DNA from: an uncultured beta proteobacterium
Lineage (GTDB): Bacteria > Pseudomonadota > Gammaproteobacteria > Burkholderiales > Casimicrobiaceae
Assembly: GCA_963765065.1 (NCBI GenBank)
Contig: CAVXVH010000009.1
Location: 6,279-70,278, forward strand
Reading direction: 5' to 3'
DNA: 64,000 bases
The notes beneath the pieces were generated by a model. The model was not told where the DNA came from and made no database searches. It was given only the letters and a program-made list of their open reading frames with translations. The position numbers and the translations under genes are program-made. Below, piece by piece: positions 1 through 8,562 of this stretch (its first letter is position 1; the number at the start of each line of letters is the position of its first letter).

Positions 1-50
1 TGCTTTCGAAGATTCGCCTCGGCCTCTCCACGATCCCATTCGAAACGCGT
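1..50 (-). CDS. brnT: BrnT family toxin, 5' part only (runs off the window); start codon reads ACG instead of ATG
   Basis: Minus strand translates (T)RFEWDRGEAEANLRK; positions 1-85 align gaplessly to 2833-2917 with 9 mismatches. Confidence 0.7.
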
Positions 51-81
51 ACAGCGAATTCCTGGCGCCGAATACGGCGAG

Positions 82-172
82 GTCTGACGATCGCGCTAAG
101 CGGCGCCCCGCCGGGATGCTGGCAAAGAACGACCCCGCTTCTCGGCGCGGCCACTTGAGCGAGAGGTTAGCC
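82..172 (-). mobile_element. Integron attC-like recombination site
   Basis: Minus strand: GGCTAAC-5nt-GCTCAAGT...GCTTAGC-6nt-GTCAGAC, i.e. R''-L''...L'-R' layout; antitoxin stop codon lies within L'. Confidence 0.8.
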
Positions 173-461
173 CCCGCTCTTTTACCAACCGGATCTCCAC
201 CCGGTAGCCCAGTGCCTGTGCGTACCTCTGTAGCGTTGCCACGGACGGGGAGTGGCTGCTGGTCGGCGACTCAAGGCGGGCGATAGCGGACTGGGTCGTC
301 CCCGCCCGGGCGGCTACTTCCGCCTGGGTCAGGCCCGCCTCGGTGCGTGCCTTCAGCACTTCATCGAGGAAGGCGAACTCGCCGGCCAGCTCATCGTAGG
401 CCTTCTTTACTTCTGCCCGCGCCAATGCGCGGGCTTTGAATTGCTTAAGAGTGCTCGGCAT
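96..461 (-). CDS. XRE/HigA-like HTH antitoxin
   Basis: LTQAEVAARAGTTQSAIARLE HTH, PSVATLQRYAQALG; overlaps upstream toxin; C-terminal tail translated through attC. Confidence 0.85.
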   Translation of the reverse strand: MPSTLKQFKARALARAEVKKAYDELAGEFAFLDEVLKARTEAGLTQAEVAARAGTTQSAIARLESPTSSHSPSVATLQRYAQALGYRVEIRLVKERGLTSRSSGRAEKRGRSLPASRRGAA

Positions 462-780
462 CCTTGACTTCCTTCATCCTTCGGCGGGCGATCTCCGATT
501 CCTTCGGAGGGGTTTTCTGGGACTTCTTCACGAACTGGTGCAGCACCACGATCCGGTGTCCGCTAAGCGTGCAATAGAACACGCGGCCGATCCCCTCTGC
601 TGCCTTCAGGCGCAACTCGAACAATCCGCTCTTCATGGCCCGGGTGTGCGGCATGCCGAGGTCAGGACCGAAGACCTCCATTCGTTCAGCGTAGCGGATG
701 AACCTCGCGACGATCCCCGCCGGGAGCGCGAGAATTTCGTTCTCGATCGCTGAACTGTAGAACGTGACCCGCCAGCTCAT
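445..780 (-). CDS. RelE/ParE-superfamily toxin (Gp49/HigB-like)
   Basis: GPDLGMPHTRAM..GLFELRLK...RVFYC...IVVLHQFVKKSQKTP motif; toxin-first order with XRE antitoxin. Confidence 0.85.
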   Translation of the reverse strand: MSWRVTFYSSAIENEILALPAGIVARFIRYAERMEVFGPDLGMPHTRAMKSGLFELRLKAAEGIGRVFYCTLSGHRIVVLHQFVKKSQKTPPKESEIARRRMKEVKDAEHS

Positions 781-787
781 GACCGCA

Positions 788-807
788 GTATAGCATAACC
801 GCTATAC
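788..807. promoter_or_regulatory. Palindromic operator of the TA cassette
   Basis: GTATAGC-N6-GCTATAC perfect inverted repeat 8 bp upstream of the toxin ATG. Confidence 0.6.
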
Positions 808-826
808 CTGCCAAGCTGGACGCGGG

Positions 827-916
827 GTCTAACGCGGAAGGCGAGCGGCGCGCTACCGCGACTTCAGCAAAGCGGAAGCCATCAAACGGCGCGTCCGCTC
901 GACAGAGCTGTCAGGC
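827..916 (-). mobile_element. Integron attC-like recombination site
   Basis: Minus strand: GCCTGAC-5nt-TGTCGAGC-GGACGCG...CGCGCC-GCTCGCC-6nt-GTTAGAC; antitoxin TGA stop lies inside R'', as is typical for cassettes. Confidence 0.85.
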
Positions 917-1165
917 AGCTTCCTCATGCGACCACCCTGGAAAGACCAATACTCCTGGATGACACTTCAACGCTCGAGCAAGCACCTTCGCGCGCTCGAC
1001 GCCCAGGCGCACTCGGCCGTTCTCGATCGCGGAGATCGTGGCTTGAGGGATACCCGACATCTCGGACAGCTGGTTCTGGCTCATTTCCTGCAGCTCGCGA
1101 AGAATGCGGACCGACTCTCCAACGCTTACGGTCGCTCGCTTCTTGGCGCGGTGATAGTCCTTCAT
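911..1165 (-). CDS. XRE/HigA-like HTH antitoxin (84 aa)
   Basis: MKDY...MSQNQLSEMSGIPQATISAIENG HTH; TGATG coupling to toxin stop at 1165. Confidence 0.85.
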   Translation of the reverse strand: MKDYHRAKKRATVSVGESVRILRELQEMSQNQLSEMSGIPQATISAIENGRVRLGVERAKVLARALKCHPGVLVFPGWSHEEAA

Positions 1166-1446
1166 CAGGGCCTCCGATAGTCGTGGGCGGTGACTGACTC
1201 GACCTGGAACAGGCTCTCGTCCGCCACAACGCGATAGATGACGCGCCATTGGTCTCCCAAACGGGAAGAACGGTAGCCTTTCCACTCTCCAGCCAAAGCC
1301 TCGTCGCGAAAGCCCTTGATGAGCCGGAGCCCCTTTGGGCCGGACATCGAGGCGATGTCCTTCCACTTCTCGTAGCGCTTCAGAATTTCAAGAGGGGCGC
1401 CAGCGGCTTGCTTGTCCACACGCCGATGCTCCTCGATGCTCCACAT
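1165..1446 (-). CDS. RelE-superfamily mRNA interferase toxin (HigB/YoeB-like)
   Basis: GFRDEALAGEWKGYRSSRLGDQWRVIYRV motif. Confidence 0.85.
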   Translation of the reverse strand: MWSIEEHRRVDKQAAGAPLEILKRYEKWKDIASMSGPKGLRLIKGFRDEALAGEWKGYRSSRLGDQWRVIYRVVADESLFQVESVTAHDYRRP

Positions 1447-1451
1447 GGCAT

Positions 1452-1481
1452 ATTGTGTCTATGTCATATATGGTATGTCAA
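1452..1481 (-). promoter_or_regulatory. Sigma70-type promoter/operator of the TA cassette
   Basis: TTGACA at 1481-1476, CACAAT 18 bp downstream; TGACATA direct repeats at 1474-1480 and 1460-1466; AT-rich island. Confidence 0.55.
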
Positions 1482-1505
1482 GGCACAGTGCTCCCCTGAC
1501 TCTGC

Positions 1506-1637
1506 CTACCGCGATGCAGGCAACCGCCCCGCAATCTTCGCCACCAGCCGTCGTGCCAACGCGAGTTTCCCCACCCGTGGCAGCGGTTGTCCACCCGCAT
1601 CGTCGAGAATGCGGATGTCGATTTCGGGGGCCGCCAT
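1506..1637 (-). pseudogene. Diverged duplicate of the coaBC 3' end (43-codon ORF)
   Basis: PLPRVGKLALARRLVAKIAGRLPASR vs CoaBC PLPRMGKLALARRLVAEIAGRLPTSH; 1506-1586 vs 3065-3145 has 12 mismatches in 81 nt. Confidence 0.85.
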
Positions 1638-1644
1638 GGTTCGA

Positions 1645-1842
1645 TCAGGCCGCGACGCGCACGAAGTCGAATGTCGATAGGTCGGCACGCTGTGATGCGT
1701 GCTCGATCGTGATCGCGCAGATGCGCCCCGCGGCATCGACTTCCACGAGTGTGTCATCGTCGACATCGCGCGTCTCCACCGTTGGCGACGGCCGCAACTC
1801 GATCCAGAGTGTATCGGTGTCGGTGAAGTAGCGGATCTTCAT
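1645..1842 (-). CDS. DUF2283-family putative antitoxin (orphan)
   Basis: MKIRYFTDTDTLWIEL...VEVDAAGRICAITIEHAS pattern. Confidence 0.75.
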   Translation of the reverse strand: MKIRYFTDTDTLWIELRPSPTVETRDVDDDTLVEVDAAGRICAITIEHASQRADLSTFDFVRVAA

Positions 1843-1846
1843 GAAG

Positions 1847-2053
1847 CTACGCATTCACGGTTACTTGAAATGTCGTGACCAATGGCTGGCCAATCCGCGT
1901 CAACGGAAGCTCCTCGACATAGAGTTCGGTGGCTTCACGGAGATTGGCAAGCGCTCGCTCGACCGACTCGCCTTGGGGCGACGTGCCGGTCTCGGGATTC
2001 AGCGCCGTGTAACCACCCGACGGGGCGGGAATGAGTACGGCAGTGAGTAGCAT
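1847..2053 (-). CDS. hicB: HicB-family antitoxin (orphan, no hicA)
   Basis: GGYTALNPETGTSPQGESVERALANLREATELY motif. Confidence 0.8.
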   Translation of the reverse strand: MLLTAVLIPAPSGGYTALNPETGTSPQGESVERALANLREATELYVEELPLTRIGQPLVTTFQVTVNA

Positions 2054-2133
2054 GGTTACCCCACCCGTTGAGGCAACGTGAGACTCGTCGCGGGTTCTGG
2101 CATGACCTTCCGACATTTCATCGGCTTCTGACA

Positions 2134-2280
2134 TCAGGCCGCTCGCTTGGTGCGGCGAGAGCCGTGCCTGGCGACGTAGTCCCGCAACACGCCGTCCATA
2201 CGCGCCTGCCAGCCTTCGCCGGTGCTCCTGAAGTAGGCCATCGCGAGAACGCGTTTCGTCCTAAGCGTAGTTCTGGGCAT
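2134..2280 (-). pseudogene. BrnA-antitoxin C-terminal remnant
   Basis: AYFRSTGEGWQARMDGVLRDYV matches the BrnA C-terminal G-x-GWQ-x-R motif; N-terminus degenerate. Confidence 0.6.
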
Positions 2281-2350
2281 AGTGCTTGACCTCTCGGCGC
2301 TCGGCATCCGGATCGTCAAGTACAACCGCTGCAACGAGTTGCCTCGTGCT

Positions 2351-2418
2351 GACTATCGACTAGGCCGAGCGGCGCACGGCAGTCTTTGCAGTGCGTCCGC
2401 TCGAGCGTGTTGTTGGAC
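2351..2418 (-). mobile_element. attC-like site with degenerate R'
   Basis: Minus strand: GTCCAAC-5nt-GCTCGAGC-GGACGCAC...GTGCGCC-GCTCGGC-6nt-GATAGTC. Confidence 0.65.
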
Positions 2419-2623
2419 GTCGTGCCGACTGTCCGGCCTTGAGCACAAGCCGCAGGGCCTCGTTGACCGCCGCAGATGTCGGGAACGCCTTCGCTACGTC
2501 CGGCTCAAGAACGACAACGTTTGAACCGTCGTTCGTCAGCCGTTTCGCGTACTTGCCCCGAACGCCCTTGGAAAAGTCATACTCAGCACGCAGGTCACTG
2601 ACTACGGGAGTCTTTGCTTTCAT
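2360..2623 (-). CDS. Putative antitoxin partner of BrnT
   Basis: EYDFSKGVRGKY...VVLEPDVAKAFPTSAAVNEALR; overlaps the brnT 3' end; tail runs through attC. Confidence 0.75.
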   Translation of the reverse strand: MKAKTPVVSDLRAEYDFSKGVRGKYAKRLTNDGSNVVVLEPDVAKAFPTSAAVNEALRLVLKAGQSARRPTTRSSGRTAKTAVRRSA

Positions 2624-2882
2624 ATCGTTTGCGCTCAGCGGCGCTGGCAAGTCTTGCAGTCATGATCCGTAGAGTGTTGCCCCGTTCCGTATGCGCCACC
2701 ACTACGAGGCGCCCCATTGTCGAGACGCCCATCGTGACAAAGCGACGCTCCGCGATGGAGTGGTCCGGGTCCGGGATCGTGACCGACAGTGTGTCGAAGA
2801 AGACAGTCGCCGCCTCGTCGAACGAGACACGATGCATTCGAAGATTCGCCTCGGCCTTCCCACGATCCCATTCGAAACGCAT
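2595..2882 (-). CDS. brnT: BrnT family toxin
   Basis: MRFEWDRGKAEANLRMHRVSFDEAATVF...DPDHS..ERRF..MG...R..TARLA..ERKRYE. Confidence 0.9.
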   Translation of the reverse strand: MRFEWDRGKAEANLRMHRVSFDEAATVFFDTLSVTIPDPDHSIAERRFVTMGVSTMGRLVVVAHTERGNTLRIMTARLASAAERKRYESKDSRSQ

Positions 2883-2959
2883 ACATCGAAACCCTTGCGC
2901 GGAATACGGCGAGGTCTATTGAGTCTCGTTTAAGTCGTTGAGAGCGGCAACGCACCGTC

Positions 2960-3033
2960 GTCGCTCGCGCGAAGGCGGGAGTCCAGTGTCGTTTGCTCGG
3001 GAGTCACTGGGTCCCCGCTTGCGCGGGGACGAC
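2960..3033. repeat. dRS3/REP-like palindrome doublet
   Basis: GCGCGAAGGCGGGAGTCCAG...CTGGGTCCCCGCTTGCGCGGGGACGAC; same family at 6 other loci. Confidence 0.8.
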
Positions 3034-3064
3034 GGGAGGATGTCAGGCACTTGCACGAGCCTCG

Positions 3065-4268
3065 TTAATGCGATGTAGGCAGCCGCCCCGCAATCTCCGC
3101 CACCAGCCGCCGCGCCAGCGCGAGCTTCCCCATCCGCGGCAGCGGGTGCGCACCATGCGCATCGATCAGCGTCACCTCGTTGTCGTCCGCGCCGAGCGCG
3201 TCCTGCGCGCGGTTGGCCACGATCAGCGGCAGCTTCTTGCGCTTGCGCTTGTCCTCGGCGTGCGCGACGACGTCGTGGCTCTCGGCGGCAAAGCCGACGC
3301 AATAGGGAGGCTTCGGCAGCGCGGCGACGGTGGCGAGGATGTCGACCGTCGGCTCGAGCGCGATCGACAGCGGCGCGCCGCTCTTCTTGATCTTCCTCTC
3401 GGACACCTTCGCCGGCGTGTAGTCGGCCACCGCCGCGACGGCGACGAACATGTCGGGAATCGTCACGCGCGCGAGCACCGCATCGGCCATCTCGCGGGCG
3501 CTCTTCACATCGACACGCGTCGTGCCCGCGGGAGTCGCAAGCGACGATGGGCCCGCGACCAGCGTCACCGCAGCGCCAGCCTCTGCGGCAGCCTGCGCGA
3601 CCGCAAAGCCCATCTTTCCCGAGCTGGAGTTGGTGATGCCGCGCACCGGATCGATCGGCTCGAACGTCGGTCCCGCGGTGACCAGCACGCGCTTGCCGGC
3701 GAGCAGCTTCGGCTGCCGCGCCGCGACAAGCGCGGCGAAGATCTCCTCGGGCTCGAGCATGCGCCCGTCACCGGTCTCGTTGCAGGCGAGTTCGCCGCTG
3801 CCGGGGCCGAGGATCGCGACGCCGTCGGCGCGAAGCTGCGCGACGTTGCGTTGCGTGGCGCGGGTTGCGCCACATCTCGACGTTCATCGCCGGCGCGACG
3901 AGCAGCGGGCAGTCGCGCGCGAGGCAGAGCGTGGAGAGAAGGTCGTCGGCGTGGCCGTGCGCGAGCTTGGCGAGGAAGTCCGCCGACGCAGGCGCGACGA
4001 CGATCGCGGCGGCACCGCGCGAGACGCCGATGTGGCCCATCGCGTTGTCGGCGCCGGTGGCCCACAGGTCCGTGAGCACGGCGCGACCGGACAGCGCCTG
4101 GAACGTGGTGGCGGTGACGAAGTGCTGTGCCGCGGCAGTCATCACCACGTCGACGTCGGCGCCGTCCTTGACCAGGAGGCGCGTCAACTCGGCGGTCTTG
4201 TACGCGGCGATGCCGCCGGTGACGCCGAGGACGTAGCGCGGACGTGGGGCGGTCGGGACGTCGTTCAT
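3065..4268 (-). CDS. coaBC: Bifunctional PPC decarboxylase/synthetase CoaBC (+1 frameshift near 3860, probable sequencing error)
   Basis: GVTGGIAAYK, APAMNVEMW, VTAGPTFEPIDPVRGITNSSSGKMG, VGFAAES motifs; the two ORFs join if one base is removed. Confidence 0.93.
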
Positions 4269-4390
4269 CGTGATCGTCCATGCGGCCGAGCGAGGCCGGG
4301 GATCGAGCGAGTTTACACTGGGCCGCATCGACTTTCCCTCGCACGACGACCTGCGTCGCCAGGGCGCGGCCGAGCGGCAGTTGTCACCGA

Positions 4391-5077
4391 ATGCGCACCA
4401 GCGAACCCGTGTCGACACGCGAAGCAACGTACGCGGAACGGCCGCACCGGCGGCTCGCGGCGCTCGGTCCCGCGGCCCTCACCGATGCCGAATTGCTGGC
4501 GGTCGTACTGGGCTCCGGCCCGCGCGGCGTATCCGCTCTGGAGGCCGCGCGATCCGCGCTGGACGGCCACGGTGGGCTGGCGGGGCTCGTGCTCGGGCCC
4601 AAGCCTTCCGGACCGCACGGGTTGGGGCCGGTCAGGCGCGCGCGGCTGCGCGCCAGCGTCGAGCTCGCACTGCGCGCCGCACGAGACGCGCTTGCGCGGG
4701 GCAGCGCGCTCACGTCACCCGAGGCCGTGCGCGACTACTTGCGCCTCGCTCTCGCGGCGCGCGAGAGCGAGGCGTTCGTGGGGCTGTTCCTCGACAGCCA
4801 GCATCGGCTGCTCGTCGCCGACGAGCTGTTCCGCGGCACGCTCGCGCAGACCAGCGTCTACCCGCGCGAGGTCGTCAAGGCCGCGTTGGCCTGCAACGCG
4901 GCGGCGGTGATCTTCGCCCACAACCACCCCTCGGGTGTCGCCGAGCCCTCGCGCGCCGACGAGCTCCTCACTGCATCGCTCAAGTCCGCCTTGGCGCTGA
5001 TCGACGTGCGCGTACTTGACCACTTCGTCGTGGCCGGGCCACAGGTCGTGTCCTTCGCCGAACGGGGATTGCTCTAG
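4391..5077 (+). CDS. radC: RadC/JAB-domain protein (start uncertain)
   Basis: ERP..RL...GPAALTDAELLA; VYPREVVKAAL; HNHPSGVAEPSRAD JAB motif. Confidence 0.93.
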   Translation: MRTSEPVSTREATYAERPHRRLAALGPAALTDAELLAVVLGSGPRGVSALEAARSALDGHGGLAGLVLGPKPSGPHGLGPVRRARLRASVELALRAARDALARGSALTSPEAVRDYLRLALAARESEAFVGLFLDSQHRLLVADELFRGTLAQTSVYPREVVKAALACNAAAVIFAHNHPSGVAEPSRADELLTASLKSALALIDVRVLDHFVVAGPQVVSFAERGLL

Positions 5078-5173
5078 CGAACTCCATCCGGCCGCCGAAT
5101 TGTTGCTTTGGATCAACGGCTTGCGGCGAGAGCAACGCCTGAGCGCGGGCATGCCGGCGGATCGCCCCGGCAA

Positions 5174-5734: not shown

Positions 5735-5747
5735 TCGTCTGGAGAAC

Positions 5748-5955
5748 GGAACGACGTTGGGTTCCCGCTTTCGCGGGAACGACGAGGGTGCGGTCGCTGG
5801 AACGACGAGGGTGCGGTCGCTGGAACGACGCTGGGTTCCCACTTTCGCGGGAACGACGAGGGTGCGGTCGCTGGAACGACGCTGGATCCCCGCTTTCGCG
5901 GGGATGACGGCGAATTGGTTCGTCGTCGTTCCCGCGAAAGCGGGAACCCAGCGTC
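5748..5955. repeat. Tandem cluster of dRS3/REP-like palindromes (about 51-bp units)
   Basis: Repeated GTTCCCGCTTTCGCGGGAAC-GACGAGGGTGCGGTCGCTGGAACGAC plus a terminal inverted copy. Confidence 0.85.
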
Positions 5956-5963
5956 TCAGGCCG

Positions 5964-7175
5964 TCACGCGTAGCGCTTCAGCTGGAACGAGAAGCGCGCA
6001 AGCGCCTCGATGCCCGAGCCCTCGGCACGCCGGCACCAGTCCTGCAGACGGACCAGCAACTGCTCGGACGACTCGGTCGAGCGCGACCACAGTCCGGAGA
6101 GCTCCTCGCGCATCGCATAGACCTTGGCGAGCGGCGAGCTCGCGGCGAGCATCGCGGACAGGCGTGCACGCTCGGGCGCAGGAAGCGCCGCGGGTTCCGT
6201 GGCGAGCCAGCGGCGCAGTCGCGACACGCTGGGAATCTCGACGGGCTTGATCTCGCCGCGTTGCGCCCGCTCGCGCAGCTTGGCGAGCTCCGCACCCAGC
6301 AGCGCCTTCAGCTCGCGCCCGTAGCTCGTCGCCACCTCGTAGCGATGGGTGATCACCGCGTGCAGCGTGCCGAGGTCGGGGGTGGGCTTCGCGTTCGCCA
6401 GCTGGAGCTTCGGCGCGACCTTGCGTACCGTCGCGAGACGCAGCAAGGCGAGGATGCGGATGTACGCCCAGCCGAGGTCGAATTCCCACCAGCGCGACGA
6501 GAACTTGGCCGACGTTCCGTACGCGTGATGGTTGTTGTGCAGCTCCTCGCCGCCGACCAGGATGCCCCACGGGACGAGGTTGGTCGACGTGTCGGCCGAG
6601 GCGAAGTTGCGGTAGCCCCAGTAGTGACCGATGCCGTTGATCACGCCGGCGGCCCAGATCGGGATCCACATCATCTGCACCGCCCAGATCGTCATGCCGA
6701 GCGGGCCGAACAGCACGAGATTGACGGCGAGCATCAGCCCGACGCCCTGCCACGAAAAGCGCGTGTAGACGTTGCGCTCGAGCCAGTCGTCGGGCGTGCC
6801 GCGCCCGTACTTCTCAAGCGTCTCGAGGTTCTTCGATTCCGCCCGGTAGAGCTCCGCGCCCTGCCACATCACCTTGCTGATGCCGCGCGTCTGCGGGCTG
6901 TGCGGGTCGTCCTCGGTCTCGACCTTGGCGTGGTGCTTGCGGTGGATCGCCACCCACTCCTTGGTGACCATGCCGGTCGTGAGCCACAGCCAGAAGCGGA
7001 AGAAGTGGGAGACGACCGGGTGCAGGTCGAGCGCGCGGTGTGCCTGGGCGCGGTGCAGGAAGATCGTGACCGAGGCGATGGTGACGTGAGTGAGGGCGAG
7101 CGCCACCACGACGTAGCCCCACCAGGGCAAGTCGATCAGGCCGTGCGACAGCAGTGCAATCGGATCGTAACTCAT
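5964..7175 (-). CDS. desA: Acyl-CoA/fatty acid desaturase
   Basis: His boxes HRAQAH, HRKHH, ELHNNHH. Confidence 0.9.
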   Translation of the reverse strand: MSYDPIALLSHGLIDLPWWGYVVVALALTHVTIASVTIFLHRAQAHRALDLHPVVSHFFRFWLWLTTGMVTKEWVAIHRKHHAKVETEDDPHSPQTRGISKVMWQGAELYRAESKNLETLEKYGRGTPDDWLERNVYTRFSWQGVGLMLAVNLVLFGPLGMTIWAVQMMWIPIWAAGVINGIGHYWGYRNFASADTSTNLVPWGILVGGEELHNNHHAYGTSAKFSSRWWEFDLGWAYIRILALLRLATVRKVAPKLQLANAKPTPDLGTLHAVITHRYEVATSYGRELKALLGAELAKLRERAQRGEIKPVEIPSVSRLRRWLATEPAALPAPERARLSAMLAASSPLAKVYAMREELSGLWSRSTESSEQLLVRLQDWCRRAEGSGIEALARFSFQLKRYA

Positions 7176-7281
7176 TGATTTGTTGAAACTCTCCAGCAGA
7201 TGAGCGGCGGGGTCGCACGCGTTTGGGCAGCGGCCGGTGCCGCATTGTACGCGAGGGGTACCCCCGGCCGGGTGATGTGGA

Positions 7282-8562
7282 TCAGACTGCTGCCGGGCGG
7301 GAATCGGCAGGCATGCCCACGATCCGCACCTCGCGCTGCGGGAACGGCACGCCGATGCCGTGCTGCTGGAACGCCTTCCACAGGGCGAGGTTGAGGTCGC
7401 TCCGCAGGTTGAGCTGGCCGTTCTCGGGGTCGCGGATCCACACGCCGAGTTCGAGGTCGATGCCGCTCTCGGCGAAGCGCAGCACGAACGCCGCAGGCGC
7501 CCGGCCGTCGGCGGTCTCGACCCGGGGGTTGGCGCGAGCGACCTCGATCAGCAGCGCCAGCGCCCGCTCGAGGTCGGTGCCGTAGGCGACCTGGATCTGG
7601 ATCGCGACCCGTGCGTCCCGCGCCGACAGCGAGTGGTTGAGCACCGTGGTCGTGACCATCGTCTCGTTGGGCACGATCGCCTCGACGCTGTCGAGGCTGC
7701 GCACGACCACGTAGCGCGACGTGACCTTGGTGACGGCCCCGTAACGGTCGCCGACGGTGACGAGGTCGCCCAGCCGGATCGAGCGGTCGAGCAGGATCAC
7801 GAAGCCGGCGATGTAGTTCGACGCGAGCTTCTGCAGGCCGAGGCCGATGCCCACGCCGAGTGCCCCGCCGAACACCGACAGCACGGTGAGGTCGAGGCCG
7901 ATCGACTGCAGTGCGGTCAGCACGCCGATGATGACCAGCACGGCCTTGATGAATTTCGACGCCAGCGCCTTGTGCGACAGGTCGAGGTCGGTCTTCATGA
8001 GCCGCGACTCGATCAGTCCCGCGAACCACAGCGTGGCGGCGATGGTGAACAGCACGGCGACGATGCCCTTGAGCAGCGCGAGCAGCGTGAACCTGGAGGC
8101 GCCGAGCGGCAGCGTGACCGAGTCCAGCTCCTCTGCGAGCTGTGGCGTCACGCCGAGTACGTGCAGGGCGACCAGCGCCCACACGACGAGGCTCACCGTG
8201 CGCTCGGACGACTTCAGCCACTGCGCGTTGGGGACCAGGCGCCGCAGCATGTAGACGAGGATGCGGATCGCGGCGAGCGCCAGCGCCAGCACGACCCCGG
8301 CATCGAAGAACAGCGGCGCACCGTGGGTGCGCCAAATCGCGCGCCCGAAGTAGAGCAGCAGCAGCGCGACCACCGGCATCACGATGCGGAACGCGCCCTT
8401 GGCAAGCCCCGAGGGCACGACGCCTTCGCGCCGGCGGGCGACGATCGCCCGGTCGACCGCCCAGCCGGCGGCGAAGCACAGGAGCACGAGGGCGAGCTCG
8501 ACCCATCCGGACGGGGTCGACAGCGCTTTTTCGACGCGTTCGAAGCTGATCGGGGCGAGCAC
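7282..8562 (-). CDS. MscS-family mechanosensitive channel
   Basis: GALGVGIGLGLQKLASNYIAG, IRLGDLV, IVPNETM, FAESGIDLEL. Confidence 0.9.
   Translation of the reverse strand: MLAPISFERVEKALSTPSGWVELALVLLCFAAGWAVDRAIVARRREGVVPSGLAKGAFRIVMPVVALLLLYFGRAIWRTHGAPLFFDAGVVLALALAAIRILVYMLRRLVPNAQWLKSSERTVSLVVWALVALHVLGVTPQLAEELDSVTLPLGASRFTLLALLKGIVAVLFTIAATLWFAGLIESRLMKTDLDLSHKALASKFIKAVLVIIGVLTALQSIGLDLTVLSVFGGALGVGIGLGLQKLASNYIAGFVILLDRSIRLGDLVTVGDRYGAVTKVTSRYVVVRSLDSVEAIVPNETMVTTTVLNHSLSARDARVAIQIQVAYGTDLERALALLIEVARANPRVETADGRAPAAFVLRFAESGIDLELGVWIRDPENGQLNLRSDLNLALWKAFQQHGIGVPFPQREVRIVGMPADSRPAAV

Follow-up and report, generated by a model that had tools for sequence, protein, structure and literature searches.

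A dut'::'coaBC joint inside a toxin-antitoxin islet of an uncultured betaproteobacterium, probably the join-point of an old tandem duplication

Introduction

The coaBC gene of an uncultured Casimicrobiaceae betaproteobacterium ends in a sequence that recurs, in diverged form, 1559 nt farther on, and the two copies enclose an islet of toxin-antitoxin (TA) genes. How did the 3' end of an essential gene come to be duplicated around accessory genes, and what part has it played in their exchange? The DNA considered here, which we call the window, is the whole stretch of 64,000 nt taken from contig CAVXVH010000009.1 (positions 6,279 to 70,278), and the locus occupies its first part; from 4270 down to 1, all genes lie on the minus strand. 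A preliminary description of this DNA had regarded the coaBC tail as a handle through which TA cassettes are imported, either by the integration of elements that supply a replacement gene end or by homologous recombination, and had suggested that the leftover tail might be expressed as a small CoaBC peptide. Our analysis indicates that the repeat is probably the coaBC 3' end retained at a fossil join-point between dut and coaBC, produced by a tandem doubling of the locus, and that the cassettes were then swapped by homologous recombination rather than brought in by the attachment of an integrating element.

A coaBC tail fused to the start of dut

We first compared the functional tail of coaBC (copy B) with its diverged copy (copy A; coordinates of all features are given in Table 1). 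A repeat search of the window paired 1511-1595 with 3070-3154 at 86% identity. In a gapless comparison of 1506-1586 with 3065-3145, 12 of the 81 positions were mismatched; read on the minus strand, these correspond to six synonymous changes, one stop-to-stop change (TAG/TAA) and four non-synonymous codons, and this codon-level recount agrees with the earlier one (12 mismatches, seven of them synonymous or stop-to-stop). The match had been considered unlikely to arise by chance, and shuffling bears this out: 73 of 85 positions are identical at the repeat, against a best 85-mer match of 44-50 of 85 per shuffle (20 shuffles of the first 8 kb, gapless). A real, diverged coaBC 3' end does bracket the TA islet. 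The two tails are 85% identical overall, their longest common exact run is 14 nt, and their optimal alignment requires a 3-nt shift because copy B has D-A-H-G where the remnant and the outgroup CoaBC proteins have D-D-A-G. Copy B is contiguous with coaBC, and the stretches that end at this tail in contigs L002-L008 are 94-98% identical to the window. The coaBC-derived stretch of copy A extends to approximately position 1601 (96 nt).

Beyond this point, copy A is joined to the beginning of dut. The joint places dut codons 1-12 (MAAPEIDIRILD) in frame with the last 32 codons of coaBC (stop included), and the homology of the DUF2283-dut stretch of L001 to the window ends at 1602. At this position dut reads ...CGC ATC CTC GAC CCG..., the coaBC of outgroups reads ...ACA CTG CTC GAC GAC GCG GGG... 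and the window reads ...CGC ATT CTC GAC GAT GCG GGT GGA CAA.... The 6-nt microhomology CTCGAC is common to dut and to the coaBC of relatives, and the aligned codons locate the putative exchange within it. The weaker gapless protein similarity that had been noted upstream of the repeat is consequently of mixed nature: part of it is the D-D-A-G motif of the outgroup CoaBC proteins, and part (IRILD) is the N-terminus of dut together with the shared L-D codons, which is not coaBC.

Since the remnant is fused to 12 codons of dut, it is the coaBC-dut locus itself that supplied the copied segment. A dut head that precedes a coaBC tail is the mark left by a tandem doubling of the interval that they delimit, and the distal end of the segment (dut codons 1-12) indeed stands directly before its proximal end (the coaBC tail). 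The two units are also co-linear: the tails are 86% identical to each other and the two brnT leaders 89%, DUF2283 and the dut head are present in both units of contig L090, and DUF2283 is present in both units of contig L094. As for the outer genes, coaBC is complete save for one extra G, and L090 has a dut start behind its second unit. The window itself contains no full dut, and its own copy would lie beyond its edge.

Recurrence of the joint in other assemblies

The identical joint was found in three other metagenome contigs, L089 and L094 (JGI, Joint Genome Institute) and L090 (Logan). Across these contigs and the window, the joint stays constant while its neighbours vary on both sides. The order is coaBC tail, DUF4258, DUF2283, joint, relE and XRE in L089, and coaBC, DUF4258, DUF2283, joint, brnTA, an open reading frame (ORF) of 68 aa and DUF2283 in L094. 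In L090, the coaBC stop is followed by DUF4258, DUF2283, the joint, another RelE-like toxin, a helix-turn-helix (HTH) gene, DUF2283 and the dut start; this contig covers the complete two-unit structure within 1.5 kb, and it holds TA genes only.

The joint or its flank is also present in read-sized unitigs (151 nt) of five other runs (X1-X5). The unitig of X1 spans 1528-1678 and that of X2 spans 1359-1509, both with 0 differences to the window, and those of X3, X4 and X5 represent variants. A protein search with the 43-aa sequence encoded across the joint recovered two called ORFs, P0001 and P0002 (91% and 81% identity, respectively). An exact 25-mer of the joint yielded no match in the metagenome contig search, although the short JGI contig L089, which was found via the protein search, carries the joint. 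The joint is real and is not an assembly artefact.

Single-slot relatives and exchange of cassettes

Among approximately 75 related loci taken from genome assemblies, most have only 3-70 nt between coaBC and dut, and this adjacency is the ancestral arrangement. Inserts in the coaBC-dut spacer are found among the closest relatives: DUF4160/DUF2442 in L009, a MazE-like gene and its neighbour in L010, and in L011-L013 an ORF that we named by eye as similar to a tetratricopeptide-repeat methyltransferase. At least nine haplotypes can be aligned at the locus. Our literature searches returned nothing on a TA hot spot between coaBC and dut.

Some haplotypes possess a single slot. In L091, coaBC is followed by DUF4258, DUF2283 and a full dut, and in L144 the full coaBC end is followed by the same 59-nt spacer, a full relE and XRE. 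Contig L089 is 93.8% identical to L091 over its positions 1-592 and 95.3% identical to L144 over positions 598-1305, and the two alignments abut at the joint. The window presents the same pattern, with 86.8% identity to L091 from 1844 to 1602 and 93.3% identity to L144 from 1596 to 836.

The metagenome contigs L001-L008, which share the Gp49 toxin of the window, have the order coaBC, truncated relE, XRE, higBA, brnTA, 68-aa ORF, DUF2283 and dUTPase start. In these contigs (640-840 in L001), a deletion of approximately 150 nt runs from 4 nt past the coaBC stop into relE, leaving a toxin stub of 60 aa with the XRE antitoxin intact. Their coaBC end (CGT TAG GCA) resembles that of the remnant, and we considered whether they could have 'popped out' when the two tails recombined. 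This idea was dropped, because L144 has the same end on a full coaBC directly before a full relE. The better explanation of L001-L008 is an L144-like single slot from which these approximately 150 nt were lost.

Rearrangements involving the same core genes were also observed in other contigs. Contig L093 contains two dut genes (91% nucleotide identity over the shared part) around an HTH_3 gene and a HipA kinase gene, in the order dut1-hipB-hipA-dut2 (2740-5155). In L103, a relative with 71% identity, a decayed coaBC'::'dut fragment (6905-7400) lies 2.4 kb downstream of an intact coaBC-dut pair, after a sulfatase-family gene; it fuses coaBC (AQDAFGS.DNEVTLFD) to dut from ERIRPHLPAY onward, with the microhomology GACGA, and its joint falls at the same codons as that of the window with reciprocal polarity. 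Finally, the dut of L144 (1781-2056) is normal for about 46 residues and then continues into unrelated sequence, LysM-like by eye, which may reflect a rearrangement or a chimeric contig.

We then aligned all functional tails with the four remnants (window, L089, L090 and L094). All four remnants share the joint and the bases that follow it (GGTGGACAA, including G-G-Q), which no functional tail possesses. In contrast, the 3' end of each remnant and the bases after its stop equal those of the functional tail tied to the same downstream cassette. The L094 remnant is the same as the coaBC tail that precedes the brnT leader in L093, over the part of the tail aligned, and the remnants of the window and L089 are close to the L144 tail that precedes relE. 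The crossovers therefore lie within the tail sequence, in the functional gene as well as in the remnant. The question of which tail is native, which had been left to a comparison with relatives, thus receives a composite answer: copy B is contiguous with coaBC, the 3' part of the remnant is a functional tail allele present in L144, and its 5' part is a relic. These mosaic remnants uphold the proposal that the coaBC tail serves as a homologous-recombination handle for cassette exchange.

Origin of the duplicated tail

Based on these observations, we propose the following scenario. In this clade of uncultured Casimicrobiaceae-like betaproteobacteria, TA cassettes fill the coaBC-dut spacer, with a DUF2283 gene residing beside dut. 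A single illegitimate recombination at CTCGAC, between two copies or two alleles of the locus, would have linked codon 12 of dut to the last 32 codons of coaBC. The product would be a tandem doubling of the interval formed by the coaBC tail, the cassettes, DUF2283 and the dut head, which would leave a whole coaBC on one side, a whole dut on the other side and an in-frame dut'::'coaBC stub between them. The locus would thereby have gained two slots, the 1.56-kb islet of the window being slot 1. Homologous recombination between strains would later have reassorted the cassettes of both slots, with crossovers that the mosaic sequences place in conserved stretches acting as anchors: the functional or remnant coaBC tail, the leader of brnT, and the segment of DUF2283 and the dut head. 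Recombination within this genome should seldom remove slot 1, since exact identity is limited to 14 nt between the tails and 21 nt between the brnT leaders.

Several observations weigh against this scenario. The window ends within slot 2, and its full-length dut and second DUF2283 are deduced from L001-L008, L090 and L094. The stretch of the window from the coaBC stop through the spacer to brnT (3065 to 2883) is crossed by no outside read. Regarding the order of events, the paralogous distance for DUF2283 and the dut head (0.15-0.20) is only slightly above the orthologous distance (0.08-0.16). Finally, the ORF that spans the joint is open in four lineages and its versions present a ratio of non-synonymous to synonymous differences (pN/pS) of 0.19-0.32 (16-21 differences).

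The structure nonetheless resembles known events. Join-points of tandem segmental duplications in bacteria reportedly form by unequal or illegitimate exchange at short microhomologies, and the present case is similar in having the dut head next to the coaBC tail, a 6-nt microhomology and co-linear units, and its flanking genes would also be whole. Tandem duplications obtained in the laboratory tend to be large, identical and unstable. The present one is approximately 1.5 kb long, old, diverged (with 14 nt as the longest identity between the tails) and fixed in several lineages, and its copies carry different cargo. Homology-facilitated illegitimate recombination is said to occur during natural transformation, and the joint would fit it in several respects: one side is anchored by the body of coaBC and the other is joined at a microhomology of a few bases, with the two sides matching different haplotypes. 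Unequal exchange, homology-facilitated illegitimate recombination with incoming DNA, and a self-closed fragment inserted by one crossover are all candidates for the origin of the joint.

The last of these deserves separate mention. A piece of donor DNA that extended from the coaBC tail to the dut head could have closed on itself at CTCGAC and entered the recipient locus by one homologous crossover (Campbell-type). Such a circle would give the same two-slot array and would let cassettes travel with homology to core genes. The two sides of the joint do match two different single-slot haplotypes (L091-like and L144-like), and other core-gene duplications surround cargo, namely dut1-hipB-hipA-dut2 of L093 and the coaBC'::'dut pseudogene of L103. 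However, the end structure is the same as that left by unequal exchange or by homology-facilitated illegitimate recombination, from which sequence alone cannot separate it, and exact identities of 14 nt (tails) to 21 nt (brnT leader) make a poor substrate for excision today. We therefore regard the circular route as a tentative variant of the tandem doubling, and a rather unlikely one.

The chimeric open reading frame

An ATG at 1637, located 7 nt after the DUF2283 stop (1645-1647), opens the ORF of 43 aa, MAAPEIDIRILDDAGGQPLPRVGKLALARRLVAKIAGRLPASR. The ORF is exactly as first written, except that the gap to the DUF2283 stop had been given as 8 nt. The suggestion that the leftover tail yields a C-terminal peptide of CoaBC holds for the last 31 residues, which derive from CoaBC; the product as a whole would be a chimera, Dut(1-12)-CoaBC(last 31 residues), since its first 12 codons are the dut head. 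Translation of the ORF is plausible, because it begins at the start codon inherited from dut, which is set equally close behind the DUF2283 stop.

Could this chimera be a functional small protein kept by selection, such as one that regulates or modulates CoaBC or the neighboring DUF2283 module? Each of the four diverged lineages keeps the ORF open, and the core RILDDAGGQPLPR is invariant among them. The ORF also retains the start context of dut, and two variant unitigs of 151 nt cover it in a library labelled RNA-Seq (X5). The low pN/pS could reflect some constraint. It could equally result from conversion by functional tails, which would likewise lower it, and open frames are easily kept at 69% GC-content; the counts are moreover small. 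The source of the X5 library is given as 'METAGENOMIC' and its unitigs may be DNA. The C-terminal half of the peptide varies freely: the L090 version has lost one codon and its last helix is rewritten, and conserved residues of CoaBC (PRM.KL and VAEIA) are changed in the window (M>V, E>K) and in L094 (M>T, K>E, L>I). The replacement of residues that are invariant in CoaBC argues against a CoaBC-like constraint on the stub. The ORF is also missing from the single-slot relatives (L001-L008, L091, L093 and L144). Selection for a function thus appears improbable, and the ORF is most likely a by-product of the duplication without a function of its own.

Comparison with integrating elements

Another explanation is that a mobile element integrated site-specifically in the 3' end of coaBC, bringing a replacement end and leaving the displaced end as a direct repeat. 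In E. coli, e14 and phage 21 insert in the 3' end of icd and supply a replacement end. As in these elements, accessory DNA is flanked by a diverged duplicate of a gene 3' end in which many of the changes are synonymous; direct repeats surround the accessory genes, and the GC-content of the islet (61% in 1-3064) is lower than that of the window (69%). Unlike in e14 and phage 21, however, neither an integrase nor an att core was found, the start of the neighboring gene is joined to the displaced copy, and the cargo varies at a constant joint. The distal repeat is fused to the start codon and 11 further codons of dut, and the displaced end does not abut the original downstream DNA: it is joined upstream to the dut head, and the cassettes downstream of it vary by lineage. 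The repeats are 85% identical without a conserved att core, with at most 14 consecutive identical bases. No integrase or recombinase was detected among the ORFs in 96-2882, all of which are of TA type or without family match, nor in the complete 1.5-kb interval between the coaBC stop and the dut start of L090. The proposed role of the coaBC 3' end as an integration site was therefore abandoned as very improbable. An integron array is not supported either: there is no intI in the interval, and no inverted repeats were found at the cassette borders save a hairpin resembling repetitive extragenic palindromic (REP) elements (the attC model was not run).

Lastly, a chimeric assembly of co-occurring strains with different islets is scarcely credible, even though the window begins in a repeat (the brnT leader, 1-85) and numerous haplotypes occur together in samples of the same kinds, given that four assemblies made with different pipelines contain the joint, as do read-length unitigs, some of them without any difference from the window.

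Other features of the locus

The features of the locus are listed in Table 1. The cargo fits the organization predicted for type II TA systems, in which a short toxin gene overlaps its partner, a short gene for a DNA-binding antitoxin. In the window, BrnT is paired with its downstream ORF, RelE/StbE with XRE, and the Gp49 toxin with an HTH_3 protein; relatives pair DUF4258 with DUF2283, and HipA with the product of an HTH_3 gene. For the ORF after brnT and for the 68-aa ORF, Pfam and NCBIfam gave no supported family, and the names 'BrnA-like' and 'HicB-like' are therefore not used. The 68-aa ORF is conserved in L001, L093 and L094. The ORF at 2134-2334, also present in L092, resembles what is left of another brnA-type cassette, situated between brnTA and the 68-aa ORF. 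DUF2283 stands immediately before dut in L001, L091 and L093, and before the joint in L089, L090 and L094. Promoter-like sites are found ahead of relE and ahead of the Gp49-family toxin gene. Exact-protein look-ups of the RelE-like toxin, the HigA-like antitoxin and the chimeric ORF of the window returned no match.

Table 1. Features of the coaBC islet, in coordinates of the window
Feature	Position	Strand	Basis or remark
coaBC	3065..4270	-	Split into ORFs 3768-4427 and 3065-3760 by one extra G near 3860
Functional coaBC tail, repeat copy B (DAHGAHPLPRMGKLALARRLVAEIAGRLPTSH, stop)	3065..3160	-	Repeat search, mismatch comparison
147-nt spacer with REP-like hairpin (2990-3035)	2918..3064	.	Not in close relatives
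brnT leader and 5' end, repeat D3 copy 2	2833..2917	-	89% identity over 85 nt to copy 1 at 1-85
brnT toxin	2595..2882	-	Pfam BrnT_toxin, E = 5.8e-25
ORF overlapping brnT end, presumed cognate antitoxin	2360..2650	-	Position only; no Pfam or NCBIfam match
Remnant with BrnA antitoxin C-terminus	2134..2334	-	Pfam BrnA_antitoxin, E = 5.4e-7, last 23 profile positions only
68-aa ORF overlapping DUF2283 start	1847..2053	-	HicB/UPF0150-like by eye only; sub-threshold Pfam DUF7387
DUF2283 gene, resident neighbor of dut	1645..1854	-	Pfam DUF2283, E = 6e-15
Chimeric ORF dut'::'coaBC, 43 aa	1506..1637	-	Homologous ORFs P0001 (91%), P0002 (81%) and L094 version
dut head, start codon and 11 codons (MAAPEIDIRILD)	1602..1637	-	Aligns to dut start of L001
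Join-point microhomology CTCGAC (L-D codons in both genes)	1602..1607	-	Alignment of dut, coaBC and window
coaBC tail remnant, repeat copy A (DAGGQPLPRVGKLALARRLVAKIAGRLPASR, stop)	1506..1601	-	Repeat search, alignments of tails
Promoter-like site TTGACA-18-CACAAT, ahead of relE	1452..1481	-	Sequence match
RelE/StbE-family toxin	1165..1446	-	NCBIfam TIGR02385, 29.2 bits (cut-off 27.9)
XRE-type HTH antitoxin	911..1165	-	Pfam HTH_3, E = 5.5e-15
HigB-like (Gp49) toxin	445..780	-	Pfam Gp49, E = 4.6e-28
HTH antitoxin partner (HigA-like)	96..461	-	Pfam HTH_3, E = 8.9e-12

The 147-nt spacer is placed within the ancestral stop codon of coaBC, where it is flanked by TA..TA and provides a new TAA stop. 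In L092 and L093, which lack the spacer, the coaBC stop continues straight into the brnT leader. The block formed by this leader follows the coaBC tail in both of these contigs and follows the remnant in L094. Further copies of the hairpin are found at 5740-5955, and its read depth is very high in all the metagenomes examined; the hairpin is therefore a widespread repeat. The edge of the window (1-85) corresponds to the second copy of the brnT leader and start, such that the window stops within a repeat and the remainder of slot 2 lies beyond.

The CoaBC protein is 49-79% identical to those of coaBC loci of uncultured betaproteobacteria and metagenome-assembled genomes of Casimicrobiaceae, and coaBC is 91-97% identical to JGI contigs. 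The extra G in the gene (3855-3865, AACCCGCGCC) contrasts with AACCC-CGCC in L091, L093, L094, L107 and the unitigs of X1, X2 and X5; every close relative and the outside unitigs have one base fewer at 3860/3861 than the window. The extra G is probably a sequencing error rather than a frameshift, because a real frameshift would inactivate an essential gene.

Implications

The event described here is of a known kind: a duplication join-point formed at a microhomology, inside a variable TA islet whose content is exchanged through conserved flanks. Like other variable islets and TA or defence hot spots, the coaBC-dut spacer varies in its TA pairs among relatives and crossovers fall in the conserved flanks. 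Unlike in the usual islets, one pair of flanks was duplicated within the islet. This is what is less usual at this locus: the duplicated flank acts as an internal anchor and gives two slots. Also less usual are the number of haplotypes that can be compared, at least nine, and the presence of the related rearrangements in L093 and L103.

More speculatively, and with only a slim chance of being correct in our view, duplicated ends of neighboring essential genes might represent a recombinase-free means of multiplying cassette slots, in which pieces of coaBC and dut carry TA cargo, perhaps as circles closed at the L-D microhomology, and integrate by homology. If this were true, each event would add an internal anchor and the islet could become an integron-like array without a dedicated enzyme. 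The reciprocal coaBC'::'dut joint of L103 and the dut1-hipBA-dut2 arrangement of L093 hint that such events recur.

These results also have consequences for annotation: short 'orphan' ORFs beside core genes can be chimeric scars, and direct repeats of a gene end alone do not indicate an integrating element. The locus offers a clear natural case of an accessory islet between two essential genes that grows and diversifies without the machinery of mobile elements, and the finding that coaBC and dut are joined again at these codons in a distant relative merits a systematic survey.

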